Origin: Deltaproteobacteria bacterium
Lineage (GTDB): Bacteria; Desulfobacterota; Desulfobulbia; Desulfobulbales; VMSU01
DNA length: 64,000 nucleotides
Assembly (NCBI GenBank): GCA_021782655.1
Contig: JAJXUT010000001.1
Span: forward strand, 5,704-69,703
Direction of reading: 5' to 3'
Under the pieces are notes generated by a model. The model was given only the letters and a program-made list of their open reading frames with translations. It had not been told where the DNA came from and did not search any database. Below, one piece after another: positions 8,568 to 37,545 of the stretch. Numbering within the stretch: position 1 is the stretch's first letter; each line of letters begins with the position of its first letter. Position numbers and translations under genes: made by a program.

Positions 8568-9407
8568 ATGCGCAGGGGGGAACGGAGCATGGGCAAGCGA
8601 CTGGGCGACATCCTAAAGGAACACCACCTGGCCAGCGAGGAGCAGATCGACCAGGCGCTACGCATCCAGGTGGGCGGCAACCGCCGACTGGGGTACCTCC
8701 TGCTCAAGATGGGGGTGATCAGTGCCGACCAGTTGCTTAAGGTGCTGTCGCAGCAGATGGGACTTGACATCATCAACGTCGATCAGGAGTTCTCTACCGA
8801 GGTCGTCGATCTCCTGCCCCGCTACCTGTGCCGGAAATACACCGTCCTGCCCCTGCGCCAGGAACAAAAAAACATCCTCAACGTGGCCATGGTCGATCCC
8901 TCCGACGACGCGGCCATCACCGACATCGAGACCTATACCGGCATGGTGGTCAGGCCAATGCTGGCCAGGGAACCGGACATCTCAGCGGCGATCAAGCGCT
9001 TGATCCCCTTTTCCTACCGGGACCTGGTCAACCCCCAGGTTTATGGCCGGGCCGCCAGGCTGGCCAGCCTCTGCCTCCTGGCGCTGCTGGCCGGAAGCGG
9101 CTGGGTTGCCTACCGCTACGTGATGCACGAACGCTACGGCACGGTCTCCGTCTCACCAGACGCGGTCACCTACAAGAACCACGACCTGATGGTGGGGGTG
9201 GAGGGCTCGGGCAAGATTTCGCTGCTCGGGCATGGGGCCTATACCAAGGGCTTCTACTCCGTCACCTTCCCCTCGGTTGACCGGCTAAAGGCCTTTGTTG
9301 ACCAACAACGCCCCAACTTTTCCGAAAAACAGGCCGCCTGGCTAGCCTGGCTGATCAAGGGCAAACTCTCGGCCAGCAGCAAGAAGGCCCCACCCGCCCA
9401 CAGCTAA
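8568..9407 (+). CDS. Stand-alone MshEN (T2SS-E N-terminal) c-di-GMP-binding domain protein with a TM segment and unknown C-terminal domain
   Basis: RLGDILKEHHLASEEQIDQALRIQ + VGGNR + RLGYLLLKMGVISADQLLKVLSQQ. The second half matches the 24-residue MshEN motif exactly, with a 5-residue spacer. The GspE_N fold continues (LPRYLCRKYTVLPL..NVAMVDP). TM segment LASLCLLALLAGSGWVAY. Confidence 0.75.
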   Translation: MRRGERSMGKRLGDILKEHHLASEEQIDQALRIQVGGNRRLGYLLLKMGVISADQLLKVLSQQMGLDIINVDQEFSTEVVDLLPRYLCRKYTVLPLRQEQKNILNVAMVDPSDDAAITDIETYTGMVVRPMLAREPDISAAIKRLIPFSYRDLVNPQVYGRAARLASLCLLALLAGSGWVAYRYVMHERYGTVSVSPDAVTYKNHDLMVGVEGSGKISLLGHGAYTKGFYSVTFPSVDRLKAFVDQQRPNFSEKQAAWLAWLIKGKLSASSKKAPPAHS

Positions 9408-9512: not shown

Positions 9513-11474
9513 TCATTTGGGCCGCAGGGTCAGCTTGCCCTCCCCGGTATTCAAATCCATCTTGAACCGCCCCAGGTAATTCAAGCCCAAGAGCCCCACC
9601 CCCGGCTGATCTGGAATATCCATCACCAGGGCGCGGACGTTGTGCTCCGCCCAGCCCTCGACCTCCAAGGTGTCGATCAGCACCTCGGTGGCAGCGACCA
9701 CCCCGCCGGCGGTGGACACCTGGTGCTGATCCCAGTGATCCCCCCGCACCACCTTCAGGTTCAAGGCCTCGGCGGTCGCCGAGGGAATCGACACCATCGA
9801 GGCCCCGGTATCGACCATGAACTTCTGGTTGACCGCCTGGTTTAAGGCCGCCGACACCGGGATCAAGCTGCTGCCGGGGGGAAAACGGATCACGATCCGG
9901 CCCGCGTCGCCCTTCATCTCGGCGATCTTTCTGGCCAGCAGCTCGGCCCGATCCTGCAACTCCGGCGGGTAGCTCATCATGGCCAAAAGCCGCTCCGCCT
10001 CCCGCCAGTTGTTGTTCAGCAGGGCCAGCTCCACCGCCATCAGATGCAGATAGGGATCGTTGGGATAGAAGGCCTTGCCCCGGGCCAGGACATCGGCCGC
10101 CTCATCGAGCGACTTCACGGTCAAGAGCGACTGAAGCCACTCCCGGTACAACCGCAGATGCAAGTCGTTGACCGCCGGCACATCCACCCCCCCCCGCTCC
10201 ACCAACTCCCGGCCCACGGTCTCAATCTTCTTGGTGGCGGCCTCAAAGCCCTGGCTGGCAGTGACGGCGGGGATCATATCCAGGAATAGGGAGATGTCGC
10301 CGATCTCAAGCAGCACCTGATCACGCAAGGCGGCAACCACCTGAGGGCCCTGGCCGCTGCGGATCAACTTGCCGCACAACTTGCGCAGCAAGGCCACCGC
10401 CCCCTCGGGCCGCAGGTATTCCGGGGTGTCGGCAGGGGATAGTTTCGGCGGCAGGGAGAAGGCCTCGGCCAAAACAGCAAACACCTCGGCATCCGGGGAT
10501 TTTCCCCGCATGGACAAGGCGAGACCGATTTTCTCCTCCCGACCGCCAGCGAAGGTGCGGCCGTAAAAGTCGTGGGGATCGGTATTGGTGGTCAGCTTCG
10601 CCTCCGCCGGCCCGGTCCACAGGTAGGCCCCATCCCGCCAGGTTCCAAAGGTGAAGCCGACGATGGCCTTACCCTGGACGAACACCCCCACCTCCTTTAA
10701 GCCCTTGGGGATGACGCAGACCACGAAATCACCCTGCCGCTGGCCCGGCTCCAGCCGCACCCCGGTCACCTCGCGCTCCGACTCCAGGCTCATCCAGCCC
10801 AAGGGGATATCGCCCCGGAAGGCAGCCAGGGATAGGCCGTCGCCGCCAGCAGCGGGCGGCGGGGTTCGCCAGAGCCCGACATCCTGGCCCTCATCCCAGC
10901 GCCCGGCCACGATCTCCGCCTGCCGGCCATCGTCACGGACCAGCGTCCACCGGTAGCCAGCAACCAGCGCCCTGGCCGGCAAGGCAAGCCAACCGCCCAC
11001 CGTGACCGCACTGCGCACCCTGGTGACCAGGTGGCCCCAGGGGTCGGCAATCGTCACCCAGCCAGCGTTCAAGGTGGCCACGGACTTGGCCTTGGTTGAC
11101 GCGGACGGCGCGGGGGACGATTCTTGGGCCGGGGCGGCGGCGTGGGTCTCGCCAGCGTTGGCGTCCCGCTTGGCCTTCTGCTTCAACATTGCGGCCAGTT
11201 GCACCCGCATCGCCTCCCGCTTGGCGGCCAACTCATCCTCCCGCGCCTGCCGCTCGACAGGCGACAACTGCCGCTCCGCAATGGCATGAGGGAAAATCGC
11301 CTCCCTAAACACCGTGATAAAGGCGGCGGCCCACAGCAAAAACAAAATCCCGGCCACCGCGATCTGCCGGGAACGGAAACGATCGCTGCGCCGCTGCAAC
11401 TGCAAGGGAGCACCGCATTTTTCGCAATGCCGCCGGGCGCTGTCGTTGCTGGTGTTACAGCGGACGCAAATCAA
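9513..11474 (-). CDS. Zinc-ribbon / single-TM / TPR-like / retropepsin-like (clan AA, DTGA) aspartic protease protein
   Basis: N-terminal CVRCNTSN..HCEKCGAPL. TM segment IAVAGILFLLWAAAFITVF. C-terminal FMVDTGASMVSIPSATAEAL..STAGG..LLGLNYL is typical of bacterial retropepsin-like proteases. Confidence 0.75.
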   Translation of the reverse strand: MICVRCNTSNDSARRHCEKCGAPLQLQRRSDRFRSRQIAVAGILFLLWAAAFITVFREAIFPHAIAERQLSPVERQAREDELAAKREAMRVQLAAMLKQKAKRDANAGETHAAAPAQESSPAPSASTKAKSVATLNAGWVTIADPWGHLVTRVRSAVTVGGWLALPARALVAGYRWTLVRDDGRQAEIVAGRWDEGQDVGLWRTPPPAAGGDGLSLAAFRGDIPLGWMSLESEREVTGVRLEPGQRQGDFVVCVIPKGLKEVGVFVQGKAIVGFTFGTWRDGAYLWTGPAEAKLTTNTDPHDFYGRTFAGGREEKIGLALSMRGKSPDAEVFAVLAEAFSLPPKLSPADTPEYLRPEGAVALLRKLCGKLIRSGQGPQVVAALRDQVLLEIGDISLFLDMIPAVTASQGFEAATKKIETVGRELVERGGVDVPAVNDLHLRLYREWLQSLLTVKSLDEAADVLARGKAFYPNDPYLHLMAVELALLNNNWREAERLLAMMSYPPELQDRAELLARKIAEMKGDAGRIVIRFPPGSSLIPVSAALNQAVNQKFMVDTGASMVSIPSATAEALNLKVVRGDHWDQHQVSTAGGVVAATEVLIDTLEVEGWAEHNVRALVMDIPDQPGVGLLGLNYLGRFKMDLNTGEGKLTLRPK

Positions 11475-29660: not shown

Positions 29661-29876
29661 GGGAATCAGACCCTAAAAGAGATTGAAAATAGTCACGCAT
29701 AACTCTGTCGTCAGAAGCGGCGCAACACTATAGAAGCTATTACCGCCGGTCTTGGATGGCGCTGGTGGACGATGTCGAACGGACGATGTCAGAAATCGTC
29801 GACAACCCGCACACCTACCATTTGATTGGCGAGACCGACTTCCACAACAAAATCCATCATCAAGGAACACCACCCC

Positions 29877-30914
29877 ATGAACACCACCTTTCTCAAGGCC
29901 TGTCAGGGTCTGCCGGTTGACTACACCCCCATCTGGATCATGCGGCAGGCGGGCCGTTATCTGCCCGAGTACCACACCGTGCGGCGCAAGGGCTCCTTCC
30001 TCGACCTGTGCAAGACCCCGGAGAATGCCGCCGAGGTCACCATCCAGCCGGTGGACATCCTGGGTGTCGATGCCGCCATCCTCTTCTCCGACATCCTGGT
30101 GCCGCTGGAGAAGATGGGCGCCCCCCTGGAGTTCCGGGAAAAACAGGGGCCAGTCTTCCCCACCCCCATCCGCGACCGGGCGGCGGTGGACAGGCTCGGC
30201 ATCCCCGACCCGGAGGATGATCTGGGCTACGTCATGGACACCATCCGCATCCTGCGCCGGGAGCTGGTGGACAAGGTGCCCTTGATCGGCTTTTCCGGGG
30301 CGCCCTTCACCCTGGCCACCTACCTCATCGAGGGCGGCTCCTCCAAGAGTTTCTTCCACACCAAGATGATGATGTATAAGGCCCCGGACCTGTACCGCGA
30401 CCTGCTTACCAAGATCACCGACTGCACCATCGCCTACTTGAAGGGTCAGATCGCCGCCGGGGCCCAGGCCCTGCAAATCTTCGACTCCTGGGTCGGGGTG
30501 CTGGCGCCCTGCGATTTTGCCGAATTCGCCCTGCCCTACGTGCAGAGGATCATCACGGCCTTGAAGGCGATGACCAGCGAGGTGCCGATCATCTACTTCG
30601 CCAACAACGGCGGCACCTTGATCGACCAATCGCTCACCTCTGGCGCCGATGTCCTGGGCTGCGACTGGCGGGTGCGGCTGGATGACGTCGTCCGTCAGGT
30701 GGCGGGCAAGGTGTCGATCCAGGGCAACATGGAGCCCTTGGCCCTCTTCCTGCCCCCGGACAAGCTCAAGGCCCGCATCCAGATGGTGCTGGACGAGGCC
30801 CGCAACGCCCGGGGCCACATCTTCAACCTGGGCCACGGCATCGTGCCGGAGACCGATCCCGAGCAGGCCAAACTCGCCGTCCACCTGGTGCACACCTTGA
30901 GCCGCAGGAAGTAA
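29877..30914 (+). CDS. hemE: Uroporphyrinogen decarboxylase
   Basis: FLKACQGLPVDYTPIWIMRQAGRYLPEY...ILFSDILV...FDSWVG...NLGHGI. Confidence 0.95.
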   Translation: MNTTFLKACQGLPVDYTPIWIMRQAGRYLPEYHTVRRKGSFLDLCKTPENAAEVTIQPVDILGVDAAILFSDILVPLEKMGAPLEFREKQGPVFPTPIRDRAAVDRLGIPDPEDDLGYVMDTIRILRRELVDKVPLIGFSGAPFTLATYLIEGGSSKSFFHTKMMMYKAPDLYRDLLTKITDCTIAYLKGQIAAGAQALQIFDSWVGVLAPCDFAEFALPYVQRIITALKAMTSEVPIIYFANNGGTLIDQSLTSGADVLGCDWRVRLDDVVRQVAGKVSIQGNMEPLALFLPPDKLKARIQMVLDEARNARGHIFNLGHGIVPETDPEQAKLAVHLVHTLSRRK

Positions 30915-31534
30915 TGATCCCCGCCCCATCCGAATGCCTGCGGCTGATGGATCAATACCGGATGCTGGCAAACATCCGGGCCCACTCCCTGATGGTGGCC
31001 AGGATCGCCGATTGCCTGACCGGCGCCCTCTTGGCCTGCGGACTGGGCATCGAGGCGCCGCTGGCGGTGGCCGGGGCGCTCCTGCACGACATCGCTAAAT
31101 CCCTTTGCCTGGACAACGACCAGGATCACGCCCGGATGGGCCGCGACATCTGCCTGGCGCACGGCTTTGACGAGCTGGCCCCCCTGGTGGCCCAGCACGT
31201 CCGCCTGGATGAGGCGAGCTACCCCCAGACCCCGCTCTCGGCCAAGGAGATCGTCTATTACGCCGACAAACGGGTCAACCACGACCGGATCGTGCCGCTC
31301 GCCTCCCGGCTCGACTACATCATCGAACGTTACGGCAAAAACGACCCTGCCCGCCACCAGGCGATCCGCAGGAACTTCGCCCGCTGCCAGGCGCTAGAGG
31401 AGGAGCTCTTCCGGGGCCTTAATTTCGGGCCGGAAGAAGTGGCGGCGCGGGTCGCAAGCCGCCCGCCCGCCTGGCTTCCCAACCCGCCGAGGACGGTGGC
31501 CGCCGAGGCGGTATCTGGCGGGGGTGGCTGGTGA
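30914..31534 (+). CDS. HD-domain protein of unknown role, translationally coupled between hemE and hemH
   Basis: HSLMVARIA..GALLHDIAK..YYADKRV (HD metal-ligand pattern). Its ATG overlaps the hemE TAA (TAATG). Its TGA overlaps the hemH GTG (GTGA). Confidence 0.7.
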   Translation: MIPAPSECLRLMDQYRMLANIRAHSLMVARIADCLTGALLACGLGIEAPLAVAGALLHDIAKSLCLDNDQDHARMGRDICLAHGFDELAPLVAQHVRLDEASYPQTPLSAKEIVYYADKRVNHDRIVPLASRLDYIIERYGKNDPARHQAIRRNFARCQALEEELFRGLNFGPEEVAARVASRPPAWLPNPPRTVAAEAVSGGGGW

Positions 31535-32499
31535 GCGCCGGGGAACAGGCGCCGATCGGAGTCGTCCTGCTCAACCTGGGCGGCCCGGAGCGGGTGGAGG
31601 AGGTGCGGCCCTTCCTCTACAACCTCTTCTCCGACCGGCTGATCATCCGCCTGGGGCCGGCCTGCATGCAGAAACCGCTCGCCTGGCTGATCGCCAAGCG
31701 CCGGGCGCCCAAGAGCCAGGGCTATTACCGCCAGATCGGCGGCGGCTCGCCGCTCAACCGAATCACCGCCGCCCAGTGCCAGGCCCTGGAGCGGGAACTG
31801 GCCGGCCAAGGCCCCTTCCGGGTGGACATGGTGATGCGTTACTGGCACCCCCTGGCCAGCGAGACCATACCCAAGCTGCTGGCCCCGGGCCTCCGCCGGC
31901 TGGTGGCCTTAAGCCTTTACCCCCATTATTCCGTGGCCACCACCGGCTCGTCGCTCGCCGACCTGCGGGATTTCCTGGCCCAGCAGGCCCCAGGGGTGGA
32001 GCTGCTGCCCATCGAGTCCTGGCCCGAGGCCCCGGAGTACATCGACTGCCTGGCCCGGCGAATCAACGACTGCCTGGCGGACGGGGGCGGGGAGGTCATC
32101 TACAGCGCCCACAGCCTGCCGGTGAAGTTCATCGCCGAGGGTGACCCCTATGTCGAGCACCTGAAAAAGACCATCGCCCTGGTGGAGGCCCGAACCGGCA
32201 AGACCGGCCACCTCTGCTTCCAGAGCCGCAGCGGCCCAGTCGAGTGGCTGTCTCCCTCCACCCCGGAGACCATCACCCGCCTGGCCCAAGCCGGCTGCCG
32301 CCGGCTGGTGGTGGTACCGATCAGCTTCGTCTCCGACCACGTGGAGACCCTATGCGAGATCGACCTCCAGTACCGGGACCTGGCAAGCGGCCTGGGGGTG
32401 GAGTTGATCCGCACCCCCTCCCTGAACACCGATCCCCACTTCATCGCCGGGCTCGCCCGTCTGGTCGTCTCCGCCTGCCAGGGCCAGGGCTGGCGGTGA
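31531..32499 (+). CDS. hemH: Ferrochelatase-family chelatase (HemH/CpfC)
   Basis: IGVVLLNLGGPE..VRPFLYNLFSD..YYRQIGGGSPL..MRYWHP..LYPHYS..SAHSLP..FQSR.GP..WL.P..PISFVSDHVETL. Confidence 0.9.
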   Translation: MSAGEQAPIGVVLLNLGGPERVEEVRPFLYNLFSDRLIIRLGPACMQKPLAWLIAKRRAPKSQGYYRQIGGGSPLNRITAAQCQALERELAGQGPFRVDMVMRYWHPLASETIPKLLAPGLRRLVALSLYPHYSVATTGSSLADLRDFLAQQAPGVELLPIESWPEAPEYIDCLARRINDCLADGGGEVIYSAHSLPVKFIAEGDPYVEHLKKTIALVEARTGKTGHLCFQSRSGPVEWLSPSTPETITRLAQAGCRRLVVVPISFVSDHVETLCEIDLQYRDLASGLGVELIRTPSLNTDPHFIAGLARLVVSACQGQGWR

Positions 32500-32504
32500 G
32501 CACC

Positions 32505-33921
32505 AGGCGGACGGTTAAATTATGTAGGTTGCATGGCCAGAAAAACATTTCCAACTTCTAAAAGAGCTGCCATTTGGCGGGCACACAAGCGCCTATGCAT
32601 CTACTGCACAGAATTGGTTACTTTCGCTGATCTTGACGTAGACCATATTGTCCCAAATCACCTTAAGGATAAACCGGAGCAATTATCAAAATTGTTGGAT
32701 GAGTATGGGCTCAGCAATGATTTCGATGTTGATGGTCTACTTAACCTTGTTCCGTCGCATCGACACTGCAATCTACAAAAAAATAAAAAAATTCTTTCTA
32801 AGAGCAGGGTTATTCACTTTCTGTCAATCGCTGAAAGTAAATACAACAAGGCCCGCGAGATAGAATATAAGCTTAAGGAACAAGCTAAGAAAGATAATTT
32901 TTTAATATCGGTGCAGATTGCATTAGAAGTAGGACTTACTTCTCTAAATGAGCTTACCCAGCTCGTTAATCGCTATGAAGAATGCCATAATATGTTCGAA
33001 GTGCTTACCGTACTCCCTTTTGTTAATTGCGAGCTAAAAGGATTCATGTCATCTCTAGATGTAGAATCATTATATGATCTACCAATTTTACCAAGGACAT
33101 GTGGTCTTGACAAGTTGACTTTAGTAAAATTAATCTCTCATAAAGAAGAAAAGATAGAGGTTGTAACATGTAGTGAATGGGTGGAAGCTGTTAGTGATGG
33201 TTTCTATGCTCTCACTACCAATGATATAAAAGAGGAGACATTATTCAAGAATGTATATTCTCTAGTCGTTGCATTATCCCAGGCAAGAACCCCTAAATAT
33301 AGTTTTATCTCAGATCAGAAAGTGAGCATTGCTAATTTTGACCTCCTTCCAGTAACTCTGCTACCTGCCCTTAGCAGTGATAGTATAAAGGAATTACAGC
33401 GCTTAGAATCTGAAGGTATTCATATCCCTGACCTCATTGCTCAAGGGAGGGTAAAGGTTGTTTCCTCCTCCCCCTTGACATTGACTCTTCATTATGATGG
33501 CATGGGACTTTACTTGAATGAGATCCTCAGGGCAGATTTGAACGATGATGGAATCGAAGACCTTCTTCTCGGAAGCTATGAGTGGGCTTTAGAGGGAACA
33601 TTTGGTGCAGGAGGCTCTGTGGCCTTGACTCGTCTTGGGATAGACCACCCCTTTACTGTAACTGAACACATTGAATTGAATGTAAGAGAGACTTGGTGCC
33701 AAGCAGGTCAATCTGACCTTCGTAAACAGCCATCTTTTCGGCCTCGGAGGCGGCACAGTTTACCAGGGCTGATACTTGACGAACTTGCAAAAAATCGTCA
33801 TCCCGGCAAAGGCAGGGGAGGCTACTAAGCTGAAAATTGCCGGTGATTAGATTCTGGCTTCCGCCGGAATAAACTATAGTAACTTCGACTTGTTGTGATA
33901 CTATCAAACTTGGCACGAGAC
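32505..33921. other. Compositionally foreign AT-rich island (one gene)
   Basis: Counted 19/60 G+C in 32881-32940, against 40/60 in 32401-32460 and 41/60 in 34021-34080. Boundaries coincide with the hemH stop and the yhbY start. No flanking direct repeats, tRNA or integrase seen. Confidence 0.7.
32533..33828 (+). CDS. HNH endonuclease-domain protein with about 330-aa uncharacterised C-terminal region
   Basis: CIYCTELVTFADLDVDHIVPNH...LVPSHRHCNLQKNKK (CxxC..DH..N..HxxCNxxK HNH core). C-terminal part not recognised except for one FG-GAP/VCBS-like loop ADLNDDGIEDLLLGS. AT-rich codon usage. Confidence 0.75.
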   Translation: MARKTFPTSKRAAIWRAHKRLCIYCTELVTFADLDVDHIVPNHLKDKPEQLSKLLDEYGLSNDFDVDGLLNLVPSHRHCNLQKNKKILSKSRVIHFLSIAESKYNKAREIEYKLKEQAKKDNFLISVQIALEVGLTSLNELTQLVNRYEECHNMFEVLTVLPFVNCELKGFMSSLDVESLYDLPILPRTCGLDKLTLVKLISHKEEKIEVVTCSEWVEAVSDGFYALTTNDIKEETLFKNVYSLVVALSQARTPKYSFISDQKVSIANFDLLPVTLLPALSSDSIKELQRLESEGIHIPDLIAQGRVKVVSSSPLTLTLHYDGMGLYLNEILRADLNDDGIEDLLLGSYEWALEGTFGAGGSVALTRLGIDHPFTVTEHIELNVRETWCQAGQSDLRKQPSFRPRRRHSLPGLILDELAKNRHPGKGRGGY

Positions 33922-34242
33922 ATGACAAAAAAAATAAAAATCCCCCAACTATCACCCCGACAGATCCGCAAACTTCGCGGCCTGGGCCATCACCGGCCGG
34001 TGCTCTCCATGATCGGCAAGGAGGGAATCACCCCGAACCTGGTGGCGGCGGTGGGCGACAACCTGGTGGCCCACGAACTGGTCAAGGTGCGTATCCAGGA
34101 CACCTGCCCCCTGGAACGCCAGGAGGCGGCGGCCCAGCTTGCCACCGCGGTCGGGGCCGCCGTGGTGCAGATCCTGGGCAAGACCGCCCTCCTCTACCGC
34201 CCCAACCCCGACCTGGACGATGCGCGGCGGATCGTCCTCTGA
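33922..34242 (+). CDS. yhbY: YhbY-type CRM-domain RNA-binding protein
   Basis: LSPRQIRKLRGLGHHRPVLSMIGKEGITPNLVAAVGDNLVAHELVKVRI..AVVQILGKTALLYRP. Confidence 0.8.
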   Translation: MTKKIKIPQLSPRQIRKLRGLGHHRPVLSMIGKEGITPNLVAAVGDNLVAHELVKVRIQDTCPLERQEAAAQLATAVGAAVVQILGKTALLYRPNPDLDDARRIVL

Positions 34243-34287
34243 CGACCTTCCTGGCGTGCGTTACGGGGTCGTAGGGATGGCCTTTCA

Positions 34288-37533
<3,246 letters not shown>

Positions 37534-37545
37534 TTCCGCCCACCA

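Follow-up and report, generated by a model that had tools for sequence, protein, structure and literature searches.

Why does a single, strongly AT-rich gene stand between hemH and yhbY, and what does its product do? The gene lies in a stretch of 64,000 nucleotides from a deltaproteobacterium (assembly GCA_021782655.1, contig JAJXUT010000001.1, positions 5,704 to 69,703), referred to below as the window and numbered from its first nucleotide. Its product joins an HNH nuclease core to a C-terminal part, here called module X, and belongs to an uncharacterised family for which we coined the name HNH-X in this analysis. We regard it as practically certain that the AT-rich 1.4-kb segment is a true insertion and that the gene in the window belongs to this family. 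The genomic context of the homologues suggests, with a probability of about one half, that HNH-X is a horizontally acquired, self-contained nuclease that defends its host against phages or plasmids. The effector of such a system is familiar, as is its one-gene logic; the new part is the second module, which has no recognisable relative.

A foreign segment between hemH and yhbY

The limits of the insertion were set by comparison with L020, a close relative found in a hemH-protein scan of GTDB genomes. L020 has the same gene order without the insert, and its proteins show 92% (hemH), 95% (hemE), 84% (yhbY) and 91% (EndoQ-UvrD) amino acid identity to those of the window. BLASTN similarity to L020 stops at 32493 and resumes at 33915, being restricted to 29862–32493 and 33915–37539; the foreign segment is therefore placed at 32494–33914 (1,421 nt, no strand assigned), where it replaces a hemH-yhbY spacer of 33 nt in L020. 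The native flanks are hemH on the left (ferrochelatase, PF00762; 31531–32499, forward strand) and yhbY on the right (CRS1_YhbY RNA-binding protein, PF01985; 33922–34242, forward strand).

The composition of the segment supports the same limits, with a G+C content of about 0.40 against 0.68 in the surroundings. The profile drops from 0.68 (32300–32499) to 0.355–0.38 (32600–33299), rises to 0.46–0.49 (33400–33999) and has reached 0.69 by 34000. No other strongly AT-rich segment is found in the 64 kb, where all other 1-kb bins have 0.58–0.70 G+C. G+C at third codon positions (GC3) is 0.36 in the HNH-X open reading frame (ORF), as compared with 0.91 in hemH, 0.83 in yhbY and 0.85 in EndoQ-UvrD. 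A first-pass annotation, made from the letters of the window alone, had described an abrupt AT-rich drop between hemH and yhbY that held a solitary, horizontally acquired gene. Profile and bins agree with the drop, its count of 19 G+C among the 60 nucleotides of 32881–32940 was exact on recounting, and the empty site in L020 bears out the acquisition. Two of the checks it had proposed, on codon usage and on synteny, gave the deviation expected (GC3 0.36 against 0.83–0.91 in the neighbours) and a hemH-yhbY site occupied in the contigs of the population and empty in the closest relative.

As had been noted at first pass, there is no integrase, tRNA or flanking direct repeat: no tRNA was found in the 64-kb window, the insert holds a single ORF and no integrase or transposase gene, and its ends show neither a target duplication nor terminal repeats, the only flanking direct or inverted repeats being 10–16-mers at chance level. 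The insert thus has none of the marks by which a genomic island carried by an integrase or transposase would be recognised, such as one of these enzymes, a tRNA or att site, and direct or terminal inverted repeats. Since the segment carries no mobility gene and is not accompanied by a target duplication, it probably entered between hemH and yhbY by some kind of illegitimate or short-homology recombination, without the help of an integrase or transposase.

The 431-residue protein (P0001) recurs unchanged in 11 contigs, which come from several samples and three metagenome-assembled genomes and all have it in the hemH-yhbY context. Six contigs of this population (L014–L019) differ from the window by 0.02–0.37% in the flanks, with zero differences within the insert; for the most divergent of them, about 5 differences would be expected per 1.42 kb. 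This suggests that the insert is younger than the standing variation of the population, a reading whose weight is limited by the clustering of the single-nucleotide polymorphisms (SNPs). The SNP-free block common to the six contigs spans at least 32092–34050, that is the whole insert with about 400 nt to its left and about 130 nt to its right, and would fit a gene-specific sweep as well as a recent acquisition.

The HNH-X ORF (32533–33828, forward strand; stop codon 33826–33828) encodes 431 residues, including a read-through extension, and is the only long ORF in the segment, in agreement with the single gene listed at first pass. It is preceded by a short 5′ leader (32515–32532, forward strand) that contains a GTAGG/GTGAG element resembling a ribosome-binding site and moves together with the gene, DNA similarity to the homologue loci L001 and L004 beginning 17–18 nt upstream of the ATG. 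No promoter-like site was detected before the gene and no terminator of its own could be recognised. Because the ORF lies on the same strand as hemH, starts 33 nt behind it and lacks a promoter-like site, it is likely to be cotranscribed with the haem-biosynthesis genes in a row of hemE, HD, hemH and yhbY.

The downstream end of the gene is anomalous. The family ends with the residues IELNVRE (aa 386), and homologues stop at this position or within a few residues of it. The last 45 residues of the window protein (TWCQAG...GRGGY) are present in this copy only, as seen in the alignment, and are encoded by a read-through extension (33691–33828, forward strand; 45 codons and the stop codon) that is basic, with a pI of 11.3. 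The normal stop codon of the family has thus been lost. The DNA concerned is a tail (33691–33914, 224 nt, G+C 0.485, no strand assigned) which is neither family DNA nor native spacer: no match to it was found in L020, in the flanks of 22 family loci or in the rest of the window, and an Rfam search returned noise only. The predicted RNA fold of 33691–33921 is more stable than that of shuffled sequences (z = −3.07). The first-pass annotation had suspected that the last 50 or so codons were read-through into native DNA. The read-through was found, 45 codons of it beyond the family end, and the native origin was not, the tail being missing from the empty site of L020.

Two routes to the tail can be drawn, and we decide for neither. 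Either the family stop codon was mutated, L001 having GAATTTTGA at the position where the window has GAGACTTGG, or some 217 nt flanked by ACTTGG were inserted. The hexamer occurs at 33691–33696 and 33908–33913, and removal of 33697–33913 would restore an ORF of 391 residues with a TGA stop overlapping the ATG of yhbY. The insertion between the hexamers was not adopted, for lack of terminal inverted repeats and because chance may account for a match of six nucleotides.

A gene in this state could be a functionally inert passenger, recently acquired, deprived of its stop codon, poorly expressed or disabled, and not yet purged. The read-through of 45 residues, the absence of a recognisable promoter or terminator and the extreme codon mismatch (GC3 0.36 against about 0.85 in the host) would all be accounted for, and the lack of SNPs fits a very recent arrival. 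We consider this explanation fairly unlikely. The ORF is otherwise intact, without frameshift and with every residue that is invariant in the family; the extreme C-terminus varies across the family, and an extension may be tolerated there. In addition, the identical allele was recovered on all 11 contigs, and read-through transcription from hemH, codirectional and 33 nt away, is likely.

The HNH core and the HNH-X family

The HNH (His-Me finger) core occupies residues 22–83 (32596–32781, forward strand) and has the layout CxxC...DH...N...HxxCN..K, with a helical insert of 32 residues between DH and N. In an alignment of 37 sequences (A2), C22, C25, H38, N71, C79, N80 and K83 are invariant and D37 and H76 are conserved in at least 90%; D37 is invariant in a smaller alignment of 19 sequences (A1), and H76 is replaced by Cys in P0064. 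The window copy has the catalytic D-H pair, the structural Asn and the metal-binding Asn on a helix that characterise His-Me fingers, and zinc-binding pairs, CxxC...(C/H)xxC, flank the motif.

Against the Pfam HNH model (PF01844) the window copy scores 20.1–20.4 bits, just short of the cutoff (21.4 bits), with an alignment confined to the first half of the model. This partial match is explained by the 32-residue insert between DH and N. The model is matched by 37/37 family members (E≤0.05; best 7.5e-9) and the PHROG HNH family is matched at 1.9e-8. A complete HNH core, as proposed at first pass, is upheld by the conserved columns, although the window copy itself stays below the Pfam cutoff. 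The family profile also matches the HNH protein 4h9d in the PDB and the HNH domain of Cas9, and a local Foldseek match to the Cas9 HNH domain of 8d2k was obtained at a probability of 0.95 (rmsd 3.4 Å, 77 columns). ScoMcrA is among the best Foldseek matches at the level of the HNH domain. No match to GmrSD_C/DUF1524 (PF07510) was obtained with the window protein at E≤1, and it has no DUF262 partner domain; among the distant relatives, P0200 alone passes the GmrSD_C threshold (26.3 bits against 23), with P0084 approaching it (21.8 bits).

The core is followed by a long helical segment (aa 89–150; 32797–32982, forward strand), modelled by AlphaFold2 as helices 90–132 and 138–150, and by a linker (aa 151–175; 32983–33057, forward strand) with a predicted local distance difference test score (pLDDT) below 50. 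The HNH domain is always accompanied by the helical segment, even in relatives with other C-termini, and the module boundary at about residue 150 was set from matches that cover the N-terminal part only (P0065, P0197). This module of residues 1–150 recurs with arrays of tetratricopeptide repeats (TPR) in P0197, P0200 and P0065.

A word-indexed search returned 66 homologues with up to 74% identity, nearly all of them 383–393 residues long and aligned with the window protein from residue 1 to about 386. An exhaustive search of representatives yielded 1,329, 563 and 89 clusters at E≤1e-3, 1e-10 and 1e-30, respectively, and many of these representatives are full-length (360–390 residues) with 26–41% identity to the window protein. 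We found no paper describing the family. As judged from its sequences and their distribution, HNH-X is a large, uncharacterised and horizontally mobile family of proteins of about 386 residues. Full-length members were found on four large plasmids, including an IncC plasmid of V. cholerae, and on a conjugative element. The G+C content of the family gene falls below that of its flanks in 15 of 20 loci, by up to 0.24 and by at least 0.05 in 10 of them, two pairs among the 20 being near-duplicates; the AT-rich signature, shared by so many loci, is hence a recurring property of the family and not a peculiarity of the window. Independent examples of AT-rich single-gene islands in high-G+C genomes are seen in L006 (8001–9257), L064 (10001–11050) and L050 (2097–3188), where members with 0.45–0.53 G+C are flanked by genomic DNA of about 0.69.

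Phages are not among the carriers. No match was found in 50,697 phage records, and searches of IMG/VR gave generic matches to the HNH core only, none of them full-length. This bears on the idea that the gene is a selfish, free-standing homing endonuclease gene which would have cut a target in the hemH-yhbY spacer and been copied in during repair. HNH is a classical fold of homing endonucleases, an AT-rich gene cleanly inserted between two others, with no integrase, terminal repeats or target duplication, is what such spread would leave behind, and the absence of SNPs from the insert across strains suggests recent spread. Nevertheless, we think it quite improbable: besides the lack of phage relatives, every sampled homologue sits at a different, unrelated site, the closest ones (70–74% identity) included, there is no intron or intein context, and a conserved acidic module of 210 residues is unexpected in an enzyme that needs a DNA-binding domain.

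Module X

The acidic module in question, module X, comprises residues 176–386 (33058–33690, forward strand) and is a conserved α/β module ending in a five-strand antiparallel sheet. When modelled alone with AlphaFold2 (residues 176–388), it was predicted with high confidence (pLDDT 91.8; predicted template modelling score, pTM, 0.85) as a β-hairpin, several helices and the five-strand sheet. No significant match to the C-terminal region was found in Pfam, NCBIfam, PADLOC, PHROGs or PDB sequences, neither with the single sequence nor with profiles, and the profile of module X returned nothing from PDB sequences even at E≤10. Foldseek searches of PDB and BFVD, run with the full-length model and with the isolated module, gave no match at E≤1e-3; the best E values for module X were 0.16 (PDB, TM≤0.38) and 0.043 (BFVD), and the non-significant top matches are mostly NTF2-like cones such as TraE/VirB8, ARC6 and ketosteroid isomerase. 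The C-terminal three-quarters of the protein, which the first-pass annotation could not assign, thus stayed unassigned after profile searches, structure prediction and Foldseek, and are new at the level of both sequence and fold. A marginal PADLOC match to PDC-S02 (E = 2e-4, 19 bits, two models) was seen in the L042 homologue (V. cholerae pW7G, 10001–11119); it lies at residues 181–224, inside module X, and is shown by no other family member.

Between two strands of the C-terminal sheet lies an acidic, FG-GAP-like loop, RADLNDDGIEDLLLGSY (aa 333–349; 33529–33579, forward strand), in which G340, E342 and Y349 are invariant and R333, A334, D335, D339 and D343 are conserved in at least 90%. An FG-GAP/VCBS-like loop had been pointed out at first pass. 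At the family level this is supported, 16 of 37 members matching PF01839 (FG-GAP) once each (best 2.3e-6); the window copy itself has no Pfam match. The module is not an FG-GAP β-propeller, as the loop is a single repeat-like element and the model shows one five-strand sheet.

Some proteins have module X and no HNH domain. It stands behind an FGE-sulfatase domain in P0152, in P0164 it is found in a protein that starts with a typical Sec signal peptide, as judged from the sequence, and P0178 combines it with a planctomycete cytochrome domain and a signal peptide. When the profile of module X alone was used for searching, most of the sequences retrieved were HNH-X fragments truncated at the N-terminus, and no new fusion partner came up. 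The net charge of the module averages about −10 in the family and reaches −15 in the window copy. Since it is strongly acidic and also used outside the cytoplasm, module X is unlikely to be a reader of DNA or of DNA modifications; a role in ligand binding, protein binding or oligomerisation appears more likely.

These properties have a bearing on two further explanations. The first holds that HNH-X is a type IV, modification-dependent restriction enzyme in which modified phage DNA is recognised by module X and cleaved by the HNH domain, without need for a methyltransferase or other partner. A solitary nuclease gene in defence islands without a methylase would suit this, as would the ScoMcrA match and the sister proteins P0200 and P0084, whose HNH modules pass or approach the GmrSD_C threshold, and single-gene designs of a nuclease plus a reader are known, for example the END nucleases (PMC12191111). 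Even so, such a role is unlikely. A module with a net charge of about −10 is ill-suited to reading DNA, no reader of the SRA, EVE/PUA, YTH, winged-helix, iEndoIII or DUF262 type was found by Pfam, PDB-profile or Foldseek searches, and in the signal-peptide proteins module X has no DNA to read. Moreover, sister families have TPR arrays, which typically bind proteins, in its place, and the window protein gives no GmrSD_C match.

The second is that the protein acts as a secreted or contact-dependent nuclease toxin, or as the toxin of a toxin–antitoxin pair. HNH domains often serve as the warheads of toxins, Ca loops of the FG-GAP kind are typically seen in extracellular proteins, module X is found in proteins with signal peptides, and the Pantoea copy adjoins a DUF2235 protein. 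The window protein, however, has no signal peptide or trafficking domain, its nuclease is N-terminal and not a C-terminal warhead, and no conserved immunity or antitoxin gene adjoins the gene in 22 loci, which makes a toxin very improbable.

Genomic context, proposed function and known systems

The neighbours of the homologues, inventoried over about 8 kb around the gene, carry the case for defence. An Mrr-type nuclease is found near HNH-X in L001, together with a second HNH gene of an HNH-DUF3298 type; L004 has SLFN/AlbA_2, HEPN_AbiV, transposases and a gene of the same HNH-DUF3298 family. CHAT/AAA_16 and giant TPR proteins are encoded in L006, SMODS and SLATT in L008, which is on the conjugative element, CBASS SMODS and SAVED with type I restriction-modification (R-M) in L037, and type I R-M plus PIN in L038. 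L042, on the V. cholerae IncC plasmid, has SMEK, DUF4365 and type III R-M, L043 a HEPN/Toprim-associated protein and insertion sequence (IS) elements, L081 NERD, McrB and a caspase-like protease, and L082 ParE, DUF4145 and Mrr. Defence genes (R-M, CBASS, Mrr, McrB, AbiV, NERD or similar) thus occur in about 9–10 of the 13 contexts annotated via Pfam/RefSeq, a raw tally made by reading names and not corrected for background. When 245 ORFs neighbouring the gene in 20 loci were scanned with PADLOC, strong matches were obtained to Lamassu LmuB, Septu PtuA/PtuB, type I and II R-M, CBASS cyclase and effectors, and PDC-S49.

No conserved partner gene was found. An all-against-all tblastx comparison of the 900-nt flanks of 22 loci matched near-duplicate loci only, and the genes upstream of HNH-X in L037 and L004 are unrelated to each other. 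As there is no conserved neighbouring gene, HNH-X is regarded as a single-gene unit. The profile of a single-gene anti-phage system, which the first-pass annotation had seen in the window copy, is thereby recovered at the level of the family, with homologues mostly in defence islands or mobile elements and no constant companion.

Several observations weigh against a defence function. Only ordinary metabolic or regulatory genes surround the window copy, L011 and L041 (a Pantoea plasmid), and the tally of defence neighbours is a raw one. With the window protein, PADLOC 2.0.0 returned no family at E≤1, and with ten relatives it gave matches to the HNH core only (E 1e-3 to 1e-4). The window copy has no promoter-like site before it, and its basic extension of 45 residues could impair the protein. 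The use of module X in apparently secreted proteins means that it is not a defence-specific domain. Finally, the full-length AlphaFold2 model on the family alignment (pLDDT 81, pTM 0.54) is, at this pTM, uninformative on contacts between module X and the HNH domain.

If HNH-X is a defence nuclease, module X, or the TPR array of the sister families, would be the regulatory or sensing part that keeps the HNH domain harmless to the host chromosome. Its release, by an invader-derived trigger or through altered oligomerisation or cation binding, would then allow the HNH domain to cut DNA. This specific mechanism, autoinhibition or sensing by module X, is suggested by guilt by association and by the logic of the domain swap, and we hold it with less confidence than the defence function as such. 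We put forward only tentatively the wider proposal that the family is an unrecognised, widespread single-gene immune system in which the acidic module with its possible cation-binding loop is an intramolecular inhibitor or sensor of the HNH domain, and in which the HNH-helix cassette has been re-used with TPR sensors in sister systems. A DNA-mimicking lid freed by a phage protein, or oligomerisation dependent on a trigger or on Ca, would be examples of such control.

Some neighbouring features were observed along the way. The HNH-DUF3298 genes mentioned above (L001 6967–7899, L004 14450–15379) represent a second single-gene HNH family of about 310 residues with a weak DUF3298 match; the two copies are 55% identical to each other, lie about 1–6 kb from HNH-X in two unrelated contigs, and may be another nuclease-plus-sensor gene collecting in the same islands. 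The copy in L001 was considered as a member of HNH-X and rejected, the likeness being a generic one through the HNH motif. Downstream of the homologue in L001, a short tandem array of GGGGATTTGGGGTCAGA-like units (9170–9260) is followed by a gene for a Y1_Tnp (IS200/RAYT-like) protein of 130 residues, which resembles a REP/RAYT arrangement. In the window, the gene for a 1,081-residue EndoQ-UvrD protein (34288–37533, forward strand) joins a PHP/EndoQ-like N-terminus (Pfam MJ0043_C) to a UvrD-type helicase, an unusual architecture in itself; it is native, 91% identical and syntenic in L020, and unrelated to the insert. A functional tie between this neighbour and the nuclease, hinted at by the first-pass annotation, has to be dropped: L020 has hemH, yhbY and EndoQ-UvrD in the same order without the insert, so the proximity is coincidental.

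Should the family defend against phages or plasmids, it would add a compact, one-gene system of about 386 residues with a new regulatory fold, and would explain several hundred proteins in genomes, plasmids and metagenomes that are annotated as "HNH endonuclease signature motif containing" or hypothetical. The models of PADLOC 2.0.0 used for defence annotation miss HNH-X entirely. As a natural case of single-gene acquisition, moreover, the locus is unusually clean, with occupied and empty sites available and a 33-nt operon spacer replaced without mobile-element machinery. If defence is not the role of the family, what remains is an ordinary accessory gene of foreign origin.

Among known systems, the closest functional analogues are type IV enzymes (McrA/ScoMcrA, GmrSD) and END nucleases (PMC12191111). 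They share with HNH-X a single gene without methyltransferase or partner, a nuclease joined to a second domain that decides when or what to cut, a location in defence islands and on plasmids, and a patchy, horizontally mobile distribution. In contrast to theirs, the second domain of HNH-X is acidic, contains no known modification reader and is also used in secreted proteins, and the HNH domain is N-terminal. END nucleases, which consist of PLD and iEndoIII (PMC12191111), were considered as relatives and set aside as unrelated. With Septu PtuB and the HNH domains of Cas9 and IscB, HNH-X shares the His-Me finger core and the zinc-finger layout CxxC...DH...N...CN; PtuB and Cas9 HNH give its best, though weak, profile matches (about 35–80 residues, E 1e-3 to 1e-4), whereas no PtuA-like ATPase or RNA-guided partner adjoins HNH-X. 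The FG-GAP/VCBS repeats of integrin-type β-propellers have in common with it the D-x-N/D-x-D-G-x-E-D loop, a hydrophobic strand and a G-x-x-G turn, but HNH-X is cytoplasmic and has one repeat with a putative Ca site in a five-strand sheet and no propeller. Sister architectures are the HNH-TPR and HNH(GmrSD_C)-TPR proteins (P0197, P0200, P0065), which share residues 1–150 at 36–53% identity and differ in that their C-terminal part is a TPR array; they are equally uncharacterised.

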